A stretch of 64,000 bases of DNA. It comes from Mobula hypostoma. Taxonomy: Eukaryota. Made by a program: the position numbers and the translations under genes. Below are positions 51,565 through 59,375 of the stretch, in pieces. The stretch lies in contig NC_086097.1 of assembly GCF_963921235.1 (NCBI RefSeq), positions 113,028,001-113,092,000 of the forward strand, written 5' to 3'. The notes under the pieces were generated by a model. That model was not told where the DNA came from, did no database searches, and worked only from the letters and a program-made list of their open reading frames with translations. Numbering within the stretch: position 1 is the first letter of the stretch; the number at the start of each line of letters is the position of its first letter.

Positions 51565-53030
51565 CATAAGACCATAAGATATAGGAGCAGAATTAGGCTT
51601 TTTGTCCCATCAAGTCTGCTCCGTCATTTCTCATGACTCATCCATTGTTCCTCTTAGCCCCAATTTCCTGCCTTCTCCCCGAATCCCTTCATGCCGTGAC
51701 CAATCAAGAACCTCTTCTTTAAACATTCATAAAGACTTGGTCTCCACAGCTGCCTGTGGCAATGAATTCCACAGATTCACCACTCTCTAGCTGAAGAAAT
51801 TCTTCCTCAGCTCCATTCTACAAGGACACCTCTCTATTCTGAGGATGCAACCTCCAGTTCTAGACTCTCCCACAGTAGGAAACATCCTCTCCTCATTCAC
51901 TCTATCAAGGCCCTTCACCATTCAATAAGTTTCAATGAGGTCACCACTCATTCTTCTGAATTCTAGTGAATGCAGCCTAGAGTCATCAAATGCTCTTCAT
52001 ATGACAAGCTGTTCAATCCTGGAATTATTTTTGTGAACTTTCTTTGAACCTTCTGCAGTGTCAGCACCTCCTTTCTAAGATAAGGGACCTAAAACTGCCA
52101 AAATACTCCAAATGAGGCATCACCAGTTCTTTAGAAAGTTTCAATATTACATCCTTGCTTTTATATTCTCGAGCTCTTGAAATGACTGCTAACATTGCAT
52201 TTGCCTTTTTCACCACAGACTCAACTGCAAATTAACCTTTAGAGAATCCTACACAAGGACTCTGAAGTCCTTTTGTTCCTCAGATTTCTTAATTTTCTCT
52301 CCATTTAGAAAACATTCTACCATTTCATTTCTTCTACCAAAGTGCATGACCATACACTTCCTGACACTATATTTCTTCTATCACTTGTTTGCCCATTCTC
52401 CTAATCTATCTAAGTTCTTCTGTAGCCTCTTTACTTCCTCAAAATTACCTGCCCCTCCACCTAATTTCATATCATCCACAAACTTTGCAACAAGGTCATG
52501 AATTCCATCATCCAAGTCATTGACATATAATGTGGAACACCACTAGTCACCAGCAGCCAGCCAGAAAAGGCTCCCTTTATTCCTACTCTTTGCCTCCTGC
52601 CAATCAGCCACCGCATTAGCCATGCTGGTATCTTTCCTGTAATACCATGGGCTCTTAATTTGTTAGGCAGCCTCATGTGTGGCACCTTGTCAAAGGCCTT
52701 CTGAAAGTCCAAGTACACCACATCAACCAATTCTTCTTTGTCTATTCTGCTAGTTATTTCTTCAAAGAATTCGAACAGATTTGAATGGCAAGATTTTCCC
52801 TTAAGGAAACCATGCTGACTACGGCCTATTTTATCATGTGTTTCCAAGTATCCCAAAGCCACATCTTTAACAATCAAATCCAACATCTTCCCAACTACTG
52901 AGGTCAGACTAACTGGTCTATAATTTCCTTTCTTCTGCCTCTCTCCCATCTTTGAAGAGTGGAGTAAAATTTGCAATTTTTCAGTGATCTAGAACTGCTC
53001 CAGATTCTGATGATTCTTGAAAGATCCAAT
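51565..53030 (-). mobile_element. Degraded CR1 LINE
   Basis: GNYRPVSLTSVVGK, DFQKAFDKVPH; CCATAAGACCATAAGA tail. Confidence 0.9.
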
Positions 53031-53408
53031 TCTTACAATCTTTTGTTTTAATTTCCATCTGCAACATACATCATCTCAAATTCTGAAATTTTTCAAAAGC
53101 ACTTGTTTCACAGGTTTGATATGATTAAGCCTTCAGAATTTGTCATGATATTCAATTGTTCGACTTCTGACTATACTATATACCTGTGTAAATAACTCAG
53201 TATGAAAAATCATCTATTAATTGGATAGCCTTTGAGAAGTACCAATGTGGATCTAGAAATGGTGGCTGTTAACTCGAGATCACCTGACCAGCATCTGTTG
53301 CAATGCTGCTCCGTACTGAAGATGTTGGAGTCCATTGTTAAGGACGTGGTTTCAGGGTACTTGGCGGCACATGGTAAAAAAGGCCAAGGTCAGCATGGTT
53401 TGCTTAAG

Positions 53409-54094
53409 TGTAAGGGGTTTTCGTCTCTTATGTTACTGCGTAGGCTAATTAAAATGGCATCTTTGTAATGTTATACTTGGGAATGCTTCTTTGTTATGTT
53501 AAACGCTGAGAAAGTCCTTCCCGCTAGCAGTTTGTTTTGTATTATGAGGACAAATGAACCAATTGCGATAGTTGTTATGCTTTTGGTATGTCTGAAGATA
53601 TTGTATGCGCGGGGTTTTGGGGCAGAAGGCGGGAGAAAGGAACAGAGGTGCTGTGAGTCTGCTAACGGGGTCGGACCCTGAGCGGGGCATTCAGCAAAGA
53701 GAGGAGATGGAGACGGACTCGTGTGGAGCGTCTGGTCGATCACCGTTGTTGGTCCCAGGCAACCGGTCAAGGTGGTCCAAGGGGTCGCAGGGTGAAGAAG
53801 AAGGGTCCTGAGCTCCAGTTGTGTTGTGCACGAAGAGATTGAACTTTGATAAGTGTGGCACCTTTTATTTTCCTTTTATATTTTATTCTCTATTAATTAT
53901 ATAGTTCCAGTAATATCTATAAACTGTAAATCATTTAATCGTATCTGGTGTTTCGTCTGTTATTTGAGTGGGGTGGGGTACATCACACAGCATCCACACA
54001 AACTAATTACCAAGTTTGGCGGGGCCGAGGCTGTTTCCCTAGACAACAGCGAGCCGAGCGACCCTGAGGCTGGCCGGGGGGGTGGGGGGCTACA
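53409..54094 (+). repeat. 5' LTR
   Basis: TGTAAGGGG...GGCTACA, direct repeat of 56925-57621. Confidence 0.92.
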
Positions 54095-54115
54095 TTGTGG
54101 GCTTTTGTCCGGAAT
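54095..54115 (+). other. Degenerate tRNA-Pro primer-binding site
   Basis: TGTGGGCTTTTGTCCGGAAT versus canonical TGGGGGCTCGTCCGGGAT, directly after the LTR. Confidence 0.6.
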
Positions 54116-55596
54116 TGGATCTACTGGTATGCTGTGTGGGTGCCCTGTTTAAATCTGTAATGTGTGTCTCTGTGGGTTATTTGCTGGTTATTGCTGTATG
54201 CGTGGTGGGTGCAGTCTTTGTTCGAGTTCAGGCTGGCATTGACGAGTTGGAGGTGGCACTCAGGACTGTCCATGCTGTTGGGAGAGTGAGGAAAGAGTGG
54301 TCTGATTTGGAGGTAGTGTGTGCGAATAAATGTTCTAGCTCTGGCAGGCTCTGCCTGGCATTTGGGATAGTGTCCACCCCAAGAGGGGCGGAGACTAGCG
54401 AGACGTGGGCGGAGCAGATCTCTCAGTTGTTAGATGAGTGGCAGTGCTTGGTTGAGGGAGAGCGACAGGGATTGGTTGAAAGATTGAGTAGGCGGGCTGG
54501 TGACGGTGTTAGAGCTGTCAGGTTCACTTACACCGTAGTGACAGCTGTCAGTTATTTGAAAGAGGGGGGAATGTTTTCAGTGTGTCTTCTCTGGCGAGGA
54601 GGGAGGTTAAATATCTTGCAGTGCCAGGGGGATCATTTCAGGGGATTAGCCCCTCTTTCAGTTGTTCAGCTGATCAGAGAGGTGTCGGGAAACTTAGTGG
54701 AGGCCCAGTGAGGGAACGACTTGGGGTCTCTGGGGAAGCACGTTCCCAGCAATGTACCAATGAACTTCCGAAAGGAAAAGACCCTATTCCTGAAGGCTTA
54801 GAGGGGCCACGCCCCAGGGTGTTGCTATGGATAGAGGGAAGCGATGCTAAAGCTATCCTCGACCCCAGGGCGCAGGTCAAGTTGTTGTACAGTTCGTTTT
54901 ACAACCGGTGTCTGAAGCATTTACCCTTGACAACCGCAAGGGCACCGGAGATTTTGGGTACCAGTGCCAGTAGTTATCCAGAAGACGATGATTGGTTAAT
55001 GACCCTGGAGTTCATGGGGGCATTGTCTGGGCACCCAGCATGTCGAGTTGTTTCTGAGGACGTGTGTAGCAACCTTGAGCCGGTACCGAATTTAAACGAG
55101 ACCCAGCGGTGGTACGGCTTGGGGAAAGTAGCTGAGGGTGAGACCCTCTTAGTAGATGCTCCGAACTACCACGAGGGAGGGGAGTTGACTGCTGAAGACA
55201 CCTCAGTGAGAGAGAGGTCGTGGCGACTGGACCCTGGCGCCGTGGAAGATGGAGGCAGCGTGTGTGTGGATTATGCGACGTGGTTTAATGTGCTAGATCT
55301 GAGGAGTGGATGTTGCCAGATCCCGAGGAGTGCAGCTGTTGAGCCGAAGATGGCCGTTATTAGTTCCCTAGGATTCTTCAGATCCGAAAAGATGCCCAAG
55401 GGCATATCCGGAGCCCCTGCATCCTTCCCACAGGGCATGAGGAAGACCATGGGGGAAATGAAGGTGTGTGGAGTTTTGGCGTTTGTGGATGACCGCTTAG
55501 AGCTTGGATTCGCCTGGGGGGGACGATGAAGCGAGGCGGGTGGCTCAGCCCGAGCGACAGAAGCAAAGTGTCAAATGTGGAGGAGTTTGGTGCAAT

Positions 55597-56410
55597 GTGA
55601 GAAAATTGACCCGACATACCAGTTGAACTTCCTGGTGTTGGAACAGATGGTAGTGGACCTGGGGATGGAAACCCAGGTCGTCAATCTGAATGAAACACGG
55701 GGAGAGAGGGGATTTGCACCGCTGAACTGAGTGCTCAGAAATGCTGGCCGGAGACTGAGTGCCGCACTTGTGGGACGACCATTGCAGACTTGGAATTCAC
55801 ACTCGTTGCTGTGGAGAAGGAGCAATGGAATTCTGAGCCGACACTGTGGTCAAGTACTGATGAATTAATCCAGCGAGAAGAAACAATGACCCACCTTCGA
55901 AGGGATCAGCAGAAACTCAAGATGTCGATCCAGAAAAGATTGGAAGACTTACAAGCTAGGGAAGATCAAGGAAGTGTTCTGACTAAGGCCAACAGAAAAC
56001 CGAGAGCCCAGGGAGGGGAGTTTGACTACACTCCCAAGGAGGTGAAGAAATGGAGGACAGATCTCGGAAAAGGGAGGTGGACACTTAAAAGGAACCTGAC
56101 GATGACTATCGACAGTTTAAATGAAGTGGAAAAACTGAAAGTTGACCTAGAAAACGTCATCAGGAAGAAACAACCGGAGGTTGAACATTCTTTAACTGCT
56201 GCTTTTCAGGTCAGGGTGGAAGAAGCTGGTGGGGAAACTACGTCCCAGACTGAGATGACCAAGAACCCTGAGTCAGAACTGCGGAGGCTGTGGCGAGAGT
56301 TGAAGGAGTCCCCGAAGAAGCTGACGTCTCGACTGCAGGAGGCTGAAGGGGTAGCCCCGGCTAAATGTTTCAGTTTGGAGAAACTTAAACAGCAGCTACC
56401 GATCGAAGGA
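55597..56410 (+). pseudogene. Captured intronless sarcomeric-type myosin heavy chain rod fragment (MYH16-like)
   Basis: AELSAQK..ETEC, LEFTLVAVEKE, QKRLEDLQAREDQGSVLTKAN, LTMTIDSLNEVEKLKVDLENVIRKK, RVEEAGGETTSQTEM, KKLTSRLQEAE, AKCFSLEKLKQQL occur in myosin rod order. Confidence 0.85.
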
Positions 56411-56924
56411 ATGAGGAAGGATACGGATTCGAAGGATGATTGTGCTGGACATGTGGTACCTGCTGCCTTTCGCTAACTTCCCCGTGATTGAGGAAGAGAC
56501 CTTTGGCCCTTCTCTCACTGAGTCAAGTGTAGTGGGGAGGGCTAGCTGTGGGCAGTCTGAGTTACGGCAGGATCAGGAAGAAAAAGAAGTGGGACCCCGG
56601 ACACGGGACAGGGGGCTCCAAGCTGTAATGGTGGCCTGAGTGAGGGAGGAGTTGGTAAGCAAGCCCGAGGTATCCCTAGTGGTGTCTGAGCCTTTTGGGT
56701 TTAGGTGAGGGAGTACGGAGGTCTCGGAGGGTTAAGAAGCTCCCAGATAGGTTGGCCTATGTAGCGCCCATGGGATGGGCGTAAGGTCCACTGTTTGGGG
56801 AGCACTGTCACTGTGTGTATCTGTGTATGTGTGTGGTGTGTGTCTGTAGGACTGGTTGGCGAGTTACTTAGAAGTCATGGGGACATGACTTTATTTGGTG
56901 GGGGGAGAGTGTAAGGGGAGAGAG

Positions 56925-57621
56925 TGTAAGGGGGTTTCGTCTCTTATGCTAATGCATAAGTTAATTAAAATGGCTTCTTTGTTATGTTATACTTGGGAAT
57001 GCCTCTTTGTTATGTTAAACGCTGAGAAAGTCCTTCCCGCTAGCAGTTTGTTTTGTATTATGAGGACAAATGAACCAATTGCGATAATTGTTATGCTTTT
57101 GGTGTGTCTGAAGATATTGTATGCGCGGGGTTTTGGGGCAGAAGGCGGGAGAGAGGGACAGAGGATAGACCAGGTGCTGTGAGTCTGCTAACGGGGTCGG
57201 ACCCCGAGCGGGGCGTTCGGCGAGGAGAGGAGACGGAGGCGGACTCGTGTGGAGCGTCTGGTCAACCACCGTTGTTGGTCCCAGACAGCCAGTCGAGGTG
57301 GTCCGAGGGGTCGCAGGGTGAAGAAGAAGGGTCCTGAGCTCCAACTGTGTTGTGCACGAAGAGATTGAACTTTGATAAGTGTGGCGCCTTTTATTTTCCT
57401 TTACATTTTATTCTCTATTAATTATATAGTTCCAGTAATATCTATAAACTGTAAATCTGTAAATCATTTAATCGTATCTGGTGTATTGTCTGTTATTTGG
57501 GCGGGGTGGGGTACATCACACAGCATCCACACAAACTAATTACCACGTTTGGCGGGGCCGAGGGCTGTTTCCCTAGACGACAGCAAGCCGAGCGACCCTG
57601 AGGCTGGCCGGGTGGGCTACA
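56925..57621 (+). repeat. 3' LTR
   Basis: Preceded by a polypurine tract; direct repeat of the 5' LTR. Confidence 0.92.
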
Positions 57622-59375
57622 TAAGCATAAATCCTTCCTGACAAATCTGTTGGAATTATTTGAAGAAATAACAAGCAGGATAGACAATGGAGAATCGGTA
57701 GGTGCTGCGTACATGGATTTTCAGAAGACCTTTGACAAGGTGCCACACATGAGACTGCTCAACAAATTAAAAGCCCATGGTATTACAGGAAAGATACCAC
57801 CACGCATAGAGCATTGGCTGATTGGCTGGAGGCAAAGAGTAGGAATAAAGGAACCTTTTACGATTGGCTGCCTGTGACTAATGGTGTTCTGTAGGAGTTG
57901 GTGTTGGGGCTGCTTTTTTTCACGTTGTATGTCGATGATTTAGATGATAGAATTAATGACTTTGTGGCCCAGTTTGTGGACAATATGAAGATAGGTGGAG
58001 GTGCAAGTAGTGTTTAGGAAGCAGAGAGGCTGTAGAAGGACTTGGACAGATTAGGAAAATGGGCGAAGAAGTGGCAAATGGAATACAGTGATGGGAAGTG
58101 TATAGTTATAAACTTTGATAGAAGGAATAAAAGCATAGACTACTTTCTAAACGTGGAGAAAATTCAAAAATCCGTGGTGCAAAGAGTCCTTGTGCATGAT
58201 TCCTTGAAGGTTATTTTCCAGGTTGAGGAAGGATGTGATGTTAGCATTCATTTCGAGAGGGCTGGATGTAATGCCGAGACTTTATAAGTCACTGGTGAGG
58301 CCTCTCTTGGAGTATTGTGAGTGGTTTTGGGCACCTTATCTAAGAAAGGATGTGATGAGATTGAAGAGATTCACAAGATTGATTGGCCTATCATATGAAG
58401 AGCGATTGAGGGCTCTGAACTTGTACGCGCTGGAAACCGATCGAATGTTGAAAGACCTAGATAGAGTGGATGTGGAGAGAATGTCTCCTATGGTAGGGGA
58501 GTCAGAAGACACAGCCTCAGAATAGAGAGATGTCGCTTTAGAGCAGCGATGAGGAGGAATTTCTTTAATCAGTGTGGTGAATCTGTGGAAGTCGTTGCCA
58601 CAGACGACTGTGAAGGCCAAGTTATTGTGTGTATTTAAGGCCAAGGTTAATAGGTTTTTGATTAGTCAGGACATGAAAGGTTACAGGGAGAAGGCAGGAG
58701 AATGGGGTTGAGAGGGAAATGGATCAGCCATGATAAAATGGCAGAGCAGACTCGAAGGGCCAAATGGCCTAATTCTCCTCGTATGTCTTATGGTCTTTTC
58801 TCTGAAATATTCTACTGTTTAGTATCTTGCTGACAACTAAGATGTAAACTGCTAATATTTAAATAATGCCAAGGAGTCAGATGTTTGTTTTGTGAAGGAA
58901 ATTAAGGGCATCAAAGGCAGAAAAATAAATGTAAAAAAAAATCACATTTTTGGAATCAGGTGGATAATTGTATGAATTAAATACAGCCATCTCAGCACAA
59001 TGAGACAGAATTTCGTCACTCTTGTAACATCATGTGACAAAGGAAAACCAAACAAACAAGAACAATTATCCTCTGGGCACATGGAGCACAGGTGAACTGC
59101 CAACAGTATTTCTAAATCTTTCATAAAGCAATTCCTGACTTAGATCATTGTCATTCAATTTCAAACAATGAAACAAAAGCTTACTCTTCCCCTTTTGCTG
59201 GCTGTACTTAATATAGAACACATTCATGCTTTTTTTGGGTCATCCTCTCTCTCTCAAATGACTTCAACTTTACCTGCTGTAACTACAAAAGCATGGCACG
59301 AACTCTCCAAGAGATTAACTTACAAGGACTATACAAAAGATATTCTCGTGAATGCATAATAGAGCCAAAAGAACA

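Follow-up and report, generated by a model that had tools for sequence, protein, structure and literature searches.

The window, i.e. the whole stretch of 64,000 nucleotides analysed here, contains one decayed copy of a family of non-autonomous Ty3/Gypsy-type LTR retrotransposons. Its own integrase is missing, and a captured, intron-free fragment of a host myosin heavy-chain rod stands at that position. The family is very probably helper-dependent and was born by a template switch onto a spliced myosin mRNA, with the integrase replaced in the process.

Structure of the element

A 4.2-kb element with two LTRs occupies window positions 53409-57621, carries a TAAG duplication on both sides and sits in a LINE (Table 1); the original prediction of a two-LTR Gypsy element flanked by target-site duplications is thereby confirmed. 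Block identity between the two LTRs is 93-95%, and their K2P distance is 0.062 (40 substitutions in 678 aligned sites). When the element and one TAAG were excised in silico, the LINE reverse-transcriptase frame became continuous (..QHGLLK joined to HKSFLTNLLELFEE.., and ..QHGLLKHKSFLTNLLELFEE..). CR1-like LINE reverse-transcriptase fragments were observed at 52467-52988 (-) and at 53229-53408 and 57626-58525 (+), with the strings ..FLKGKSC..NLFEFFEEITSRIDK..VDVVYLDFQKAFDKVPH..; the LTR element is nested in one CR1-like LINE fragment.

Table 1. Features of the element in the window and of the donor exons on C68
Feature	Position	Strand	Basis
Target-site duplication TAAG, 5' copy	53405..53408	+	identical to TAAG at 57622-57625
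5' LTR, TG..CA ends, 686 bases	53409..54094	+	direct repeat of 56925-57621
gag remnant, PNMA-type	54364..54528	+	tblastn with gag of autonomous relative L052: 42% over 55 aa, E 2.4e-8
Open frame of 338 aa: protease-region and reverse-transcriptase remnant, ending just past AFVDD	54513..55529	+	RVT_1, L052 Pol
RNase H remnant EKIDPTYQLNFLVLEQMVVD, 20 aa	55599..55658	+	counterpart of NYPTHKLNFLALERAVVDELSD in older subfamily and autonomous relatives
Myosin heavy-chain rod fragment, captured, intron-free, internally deleted	55659..56412	+	phmmer, donor exons on C68
Pol C-terminal tail (downstream of integrase core), frameshifted relative to myosin frame	56413..56775	+	L052 Pol similarity
Polypurine tract GGTGGGGGGAGAG	56897..56909	+	upstream of 3' LTR start; abuts LTR in copy L049
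3' LTR, TG..CA ends, 697 bases	56925..57621	+	direct repeat of 5' LTR; copy alignments stop there
Target-site duplication TAAG, 3' copy	57622..57625	+	matches TAAG at 53405-53408
Donor exon A	C68:14524969-14525196	+	91.3 / 90.0 / 89.1% to L047 / L046 / L045 over 230 nt; AG and GT bounds
Donor exon D	C68 about 14612356-14612503	+	96.6 / 93.3 / 91.9% to older copies; AG and GTGAGT bounds
Donor exon G	C68:14663721-14663817	+	90.7% over 97 nt to older copies; splice sites seen
Donor exon H	C68:14666489-14666599	+	90.9% over 66 nt to older copies; splice sites seen

The Pol domains of the window copy are a reverse transcriptase (RT) remnant followed by an RNase H remnant, with nothing more of the RT-RNase H-integrase series. 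For the gag remnant, the PNMA score of a sister copy's fused frame (P0006) is 24.4 bits against a cut-off of 25. The frame that contains the RT remnant matches RVT_1 with an E-value of 0.0094, short of the Pfam cut-off, and residues 204-291 of the Pol protein of L052 match 55242-55508 with 49% identity over 89 aa (tblastn, E 4.7e-21). The AFVDD (YxDD) motif at 55479-55493 lies inside this remnant, as had been predicted.

The stretch past the cargo had been read as the integrase-side tail of Pol, and this reading holds. Positions 56448-56525 match L052 Pol residues 1110-1135 (73% over 26 aa, E 3.3e-8), the autonomous sequence being ..DVWYLLPFADSPVPGEETLGPSITES.. with 73% identity; blastn of the tail against L052 6872-6983 gives 76%. 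The predicted VRRSRRVKKLPDRLAY is located at 56713-56760, and the autonomous Pol end ..VQRPQRSRHPPERLTYIAPGEQ corresponds to VRRSRRVKKLPDRLAYVAPMG from window position 56713. No integrase homology was found at 55659-56412, since L052 Pol matches (tblastn) are confined to the RT and the C-terminal tail.

Positions 56910-56924, which separate the polypurine tract from the 3' LTR, are a 15-base tandem duplication of the LTR start (TGTAAGGGGAGAGAG), which copy L049 lacks.

Myosin homology of the cargo

About 800 bp with a coiled-coil translation had been proposed to be a myosin rod with its parts in the original order, and the protein comparisons bear this out. Positions 55694-56476 (+) form a single open frame of 260 aa. 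In a phmmer search against PDB chains this frame matched myosin-4 (6ysy_A, E 1.8e-13) and seven myosin-7 entries (E 2.6e-13 to 8.6e-12), with query residues 8-164 colinear with MYH residues 935-1091 (157 residues). Further along the frame, the RLEEAGG... stretch corresponds to about MYH 1141-1190 and the KKLAQRLQ..AKCSSLEKTKQRL stretch (KKL..RLQ.AE..AKC.SLEK.KQ) to about MYH 1395-1427. Overall, the cargo covers approximately MYH residues 910-1100, 1155-1187 and 1395-1427.

Thirteen of the 14 PDB chain matches are myosins. The match goes beyond generic coiled-coil bias, because the sole non-myosin chain had an E-value of 0.7; the possibility that MYH proteins would not be hit at all, or only through such bias, is thus contradicted, though Pfam Myosin_tail_1 was not reported for the window frame at E <= 1. 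On the older copy L047 the same model reached 19.1 and 38.0 bits (gathering cut-off 38.1), and L047 matched a full-length myosin at E 1e-23. The silence of Myosin_tail_1 on the 260-aa frame is therefore a sign of real but eroded homology.

That silence, together with a protein identity to named myosins of only 27-34%, might be taken to favor a coiled coil that is an old native domain of the Gypsy lineage and myosin-like by resemblance. Such an origin is next to impossible: the phmmer match is colinear over 157 residues at E 1.8e-13, autonomous relatives have an integrase at the cargo position, and the reading is already refuted by host exons that are 89-97% identical to the cargo in nucleotides (see below).

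As to the type of myosin, a word-indexed protein search returned only four myosins with 24-27% identity, all named myosin-7-like, and was uninformative on the paralogue. The best full-length match in a representative-library phmmer search was a classical sarcomeric myosin, 76% identical to MYH7-like, with MYH16 and MYH7 not separable. By bit score the cargo is closer to MYH16 (155-167) than to MYH7-like proteins (125-145), and the MYH16-type strings GDLKMTIE.LNEME and LNQRD are present. In a tree of 23 rows and 250 columns (6 element rows, 5 MYH7-like, 2 invertebrate and 10 of about 90 MYH16-named proteins, with MYH7B, MYH13 and MYH15 rows absent), the element clade (100/100) is sister to all ten MYH16 rows (94/93) and not nested within them; the MYH16 clade excluding the element rows is supported at 92/93. 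The label 'MYH16-like' used in the original prediction is accurate for the nearest named family and for nothing further, the donor being a paralogue on C68 and the cargo lying outside MYH16.

Copies, subfamilies and autonomous relatives

A DNA search with 55597-56410 in the 3.48-Gb genome from which the window comes gave 858 first-look candidates. All 40 candidates that were scored are 93-100% identical to the query, nearly all at full length. Protein-level first looks gave 1688 and 2205 candidates, real myosin exons included. The whole element is common: in 29 of 29 other copies read, an alignment of about 89-91% identity extends well past the cargo. Of these, 25 match as far as the end of the 3' LTR (57605-57631) and no further, despite about 300 additional bases, and the flanks are unrelated; the remaining four are interrupted or truncated. 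Since the alignments stop at the LTR end with unrelated flanks, the copies are independent insertions of the 4.2-kb element, and the claim that the chimera went on replicating as a family after the capture is upheld.

Two copies retain a fused single frame, of 716 aa in L017 (with a Met just after the 5' LTR) and of 677 aa in L020. Along this frame the gag remnant is followed by RT as far as YVDD, then by a short remnant of RNase H and by myosin. An older, rarer subfamily (L045, L046, L047 and L050) is 75-80% identical to the window element in nucleotides, and about 38 places of this older group were found in a single-exon search. Its members retain RNase H as far as ..KYRPGSRNIDVDVLSR, with myosin directly after. 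In the frame of L047 the RNase H end (..LKYRPGSRNIDVDVLSRQ..) runs straight into myosin of about MYH 885-1187 and then about 1395-1430, the jump falling at a repeated ..ELEE(A/S).. motif; L045 and L046 have an internal deletion different from that of L047. Missing from the subfamily in the window are the end of RT, the greater part of RNase H and MYH residues of about 1105-1155.

The open frames of the autonomous relatives (L051-L053) are 1317-1694 aa long, with PNMA-type gag, RVT_1, RT_RNaseH_2, Integrase_H2C2 and rve in Gypsy order. Integrase_H2C2 and rve lie exactly at the position of the cargo, and the same C-terminal tail follows. The integrase of the autonomous relatives and the RNase H of the older copies lead to the conclusion that the cargo replaced the integrase and that the other losses are secondary; in the window copy, the end of RT and the bulk of RNase H were deleted later. 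The cargo had been predicted to stand in place of both RNase H and integrase. This applies to the integrase; it does not apply to RNase H, which the older copies keep and of which 20 aa survive in the window copy. The autonomous relatives examined are 70-78% identical to the chimera in nucleotides, with partial LTR similarity; they are kin, and not a proven helper.

The Pol C-terminal region of two of these relatives contains tandem repeats, with an 84-base period at 6994-7643 in L052 and in hugely expanded form at about 7200-9900 in L051. The repeats encode GEGVAEPPVFQPGL and are open in more than one frame.

Contigs from four public runs (two organisms) contain pieces of the family and carry no information on transcription. 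A variant with a 120-base deletion in the cargo (window 55722-55841) was present in contigs of all four runs examined. This deletion equals a 40-residue gap in a Mobula birostris protein (P0007) and therefore probably marks a separate subfamily.

Long contiguous Myosin_tail_1 matches with several stops were also seen at C18:48745523-48746731, C50:30689110-30689772, C184:304888-305403 and C157:172388-172903, covering model positions 514-920 and 552-778. They could represent further intron-free copies or pseudogenes of myosin that have no connection with the element family.

The donor gene

The donor is a divergent host myosin paralogue with giant introns on C68. When donor exons were sought with long queries, whether myosin or cargo, copies of the element swamped the result; a single-exon DNA query was effective. 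Four donor exons (A, D, G and H) were seen, colinear over 141 kb on the + strand (Table 1). The homology of exon A to the element ends exactly at the GT splice site. Exons G and H, 2.67 kb apart in the gene, are joined base-perfectly in the element (..GCGTCCCAG joined to AT.GAGATG..). The proposed origin from spliced RNA, based on a span of several exons with no introns, is thus corroborated by splice-bounded exons that are joined precisely and by a missing 2.67-kb intron. The window copy itself is 77% identical to exon A, 79% to exon D and 85-91% to exons G and H in nucleotides.

The orthologue of MYH16 in the host lies at C36:112.72 Mb, where MYH 895-1231 is spread over no fewer than eight exons in 9.3 kb. 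One of its exons, compared in a protein search that returned 97 proteins at E <= 1e-5 among 370 candidates, has 82-84% identity with shark 'myosin-16-like' proteins and 74% with Callorhinchus myosin-16. As a donor this gene was rejected: its nucleotide identity to the cargo is 67-75%, versus 89-97% for the C68 paralogue, and the cargo falls outside the MYH16 clade.

A transfer in the reverse direction, in which the C68 'exons' would be pieces of the element exonised by a host gene, would fit the observation that the C68 exon at 14.525 Mb is as distant from other myosins as the cargo is. It is very unlikely nonetheless. Element and C68 cease to be homologous precisely at canonical splice sites, and these sites are also where exons of the host's MYH16 gene begin or end. 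All four stretches lie in colinear order on one strand within 141 kb, and beyond them come myosin exons foreign to the element, at 14.674 and 14.683 Mb. Neither Pol nor LTR sequence was found beside the C68 exons in the stretches read around them.

Even donor exon A reaches no more than 41-47% identity with MYH16 or MYH7-like proteins. Its divergence explains most of the apparent distance of the cargo from known myosins; the donor may therefore be a decaying gene, or else a fast-evolving one. The original prediction had ascribed the greater divergence of the cargo, relative to that of the LTRs, to long replication of the family. The family did replicate, but the main reason for the divergence is the donor.

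The donor paralogue extends over at least 158 kb for part of the rod (C68:14.52-14.69 Mb), versus 9.3 kb in the MYH16 orthologue, and adjoins a classical myosin cluster at C68:15.3-15.9 Mb. That cluster matches a MYH7-like query piecewise (1-54, 51-113 and 108-165), and copies of the element match that query at 10-165 unbroken.

Mechanism of capture

At the 5' border of the cargo, the autonomous sequence ..GCCGAG GAGTGGAAGAGT.. and the start of the donor exon, GAGCGGGAGAGT, are identical in 10 of 12 bases and in frame; the border in the chimera reads ..GA.GAG GAGC.GGAGAGTCGG... This junction fits the template switching that had been proposed. Microsimilarity-guided template switching at fusion points is described for LTR-mediated retroposition in animals in the parts of Tan et al. 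2016 (PMC5131818) consulted here, which also describe the re-mobilisation of chimeras as non-autonomous elements of low copy number.

In the mechanism we propose, a reverse transcriptase copying element RNA would have switched onto the spliced mRNA of the myosin paralogue and then back. This would have exchanged nearly the whole integrase for several hundred bases of rod-coding sequence and fused the myosin sequence in frame behind RNase H, ahead of the C-terminal Pol tail. Because the LTRs, the polypurine tract and presumably the packaging signals would have been kept, a related autonomous element could supply the proteins that copy the chimera in trans. Internal deletions would later have removed further parts of RT, RNase H and myosin, and those within myosin, at repeated ELEE motifs, would fit further jumps or slippage.

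The 5' capture point lies no more than 3 bases from the 5' boundary of donor exon A (C68:14524967-69), a coincidence that simple template switching does not predict. It may have arisen by chance, helped by the microsimilarity, or point to an unusual template.

Capture at the DNA level was also considered, with a LINE-made processed pseudogene of a myosin landing in an LTR element of which a copy was later amplified. The element is surrounded by many CR1-like LINEs that have reverse-transcriptase frames, and the cargo is intron-free. Against such an insertion, the integrase is replaced and not interrupted; the cargo derives from the interior of the mRNA, has neither a 3' end nor poly(A), and lies in frame on the same strand as Pol. 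With the 10 of 12 bases shared with the autonomous sequence at the 5' border and no second target duplication seen at the cargo borders, we consider this course of events highly improbable, and a template switch at the RNA level is preferred.

Comparison with known systems

Host-gene capture by LTR elements is a known process, of which the present family is an unusually prolific example. So far as the consulted parts of Tan et al. (2016, Genome Res 26:1663, PMC5131818) describe them, LTR-mediated retrocopies resemble the family in several respects: a host mRNA lies inside a discontinuous LTR element, the fusion points have microsimilarity (here the 5' point, 10 of 12 bases), the cargo shares strand and reading frame with the element, and the chimera is able to undergo further retroposition as a non-autonomous element. 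The retrocopies described there are young and have one to few copies, whereas the myosin family has hundreds to perhaps two thousand copies in several subfamilies, has relatives in two ray families and carries a cargo that substitutes precisely for the integrase. Maize Bs1, as the same text describes it, is likewise an LTR element with pieces of host-gene exons; it has one to five copies and three genes, in contrast to a far larger family with a rod fragment of one gene. In the MaLR/MERVL and ETn/MusD pairs (PMC5131818, in part), deleted elements that are copied in trans outnumber their helpers, a further likeness, but these lack a host coding fragment.

A different comparison is offered by viruses. 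In replication-defective transducing retroviruses, spliced host cDNA replaces essential viral genes in an in-frame fusion, and a helper is needed. The myosin element shares the captured spliced host sequence, the in-frame fusion and, by inference, the helper dependence. Unlike them, it gives no indication of an envelope or infectious stage, and what it carries is part of a structural rod that shows no trace of activity or selection.

No publication describing an LTR element that bears myosin, or one of this kind from rays, was found within the literature covered, which was seen in part (subscription journals and Repbase lay outside it). With its donor exons, exact joins, microsimilar switch point, autonomous relatives and subfamilies of stepwise deletion, the family is an unusually clear case of capture. 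It shows that a vertebrate genome can accumulate host-gene chimeras in very large numbers, where the cases described in the parts of the literature consulted have one to few copies.

Selection and possible function

The myosin frame (about 780 nt) contains at most one stop in 19 of 30 copies, with 10-19 stops in the other frames, and the listed frames reach 731 aa. Taken at face value, this would suggest a gag-RT-myosin frame kept by selection, either helping the element or domesticated by the host. In the myosin frame the pairwise pN/pS is 0.65, and the two wrong frames give 0.56 and 0.71; differences among the 30 copies are spread over the codon positions as 34/33/33%; and omega between L047 and the donor exons is 0.96 over 131 codons. 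Many copies are deleted or frameshifted, and a recent copy of a coding sequence rich in Glu, Lys and Gln inherits a stop-poor frame in any case. Selection on the myosin frame was rejected on the three-frame control, and we regard its maintenance for either benefit as highly unlikely. The open frame is inherited, not maintained, and decays neutrally. There is no sign that the myosin cargo does anything, and it probably lacks a function for the element or the host.

Two speculative roles may be mentioned, both of which are improbable. About one thousand sense copies with some 750 bases of myosin each might feed small-RNA silencing that would hit the donor too, or the coiled coil might have helped the Gag-Pol remnant to join the particles of the helper. 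If true, small-RNA targeting could explain the divergence of the donor and its stretch of at least 158 kb, and joining the helper's particles would explain the success of the family. Silencing of donor genes via gene-capturing transposons has been proposed in maize, according to the portion of bioRxiv 10.1101/777037 consulted.

Distribution among rays and annotation

Relatives of the fused frame occur in the annotations of other rays. The uncharacterised Mobula birostris protein P0007 is 81% identical, apart from its 40-residue gap, and a Hypanus sabinus model named 'transmembrane protein 192 isoform X1' includes the Pol portion as well as the myosin portion. Divergence from the donor is 3-11% for the older inserts and the LTRs in the window are 6.2% apart, yet Hypanus belongs to a different ray family; the combination of a Hypanus relative with inserts so close to the donor needs slow rates, transfer between lineages or an equally old donor. 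Within Mobula hypostoma, short frames are named 'myosin-16-like', 'myosin heavy chain, cardiac muscle isoform-like' and 'skeletal muscle-like'. Frames of the element that stand under myosin or TMEM192 names in public ray annotations ought to be masked.
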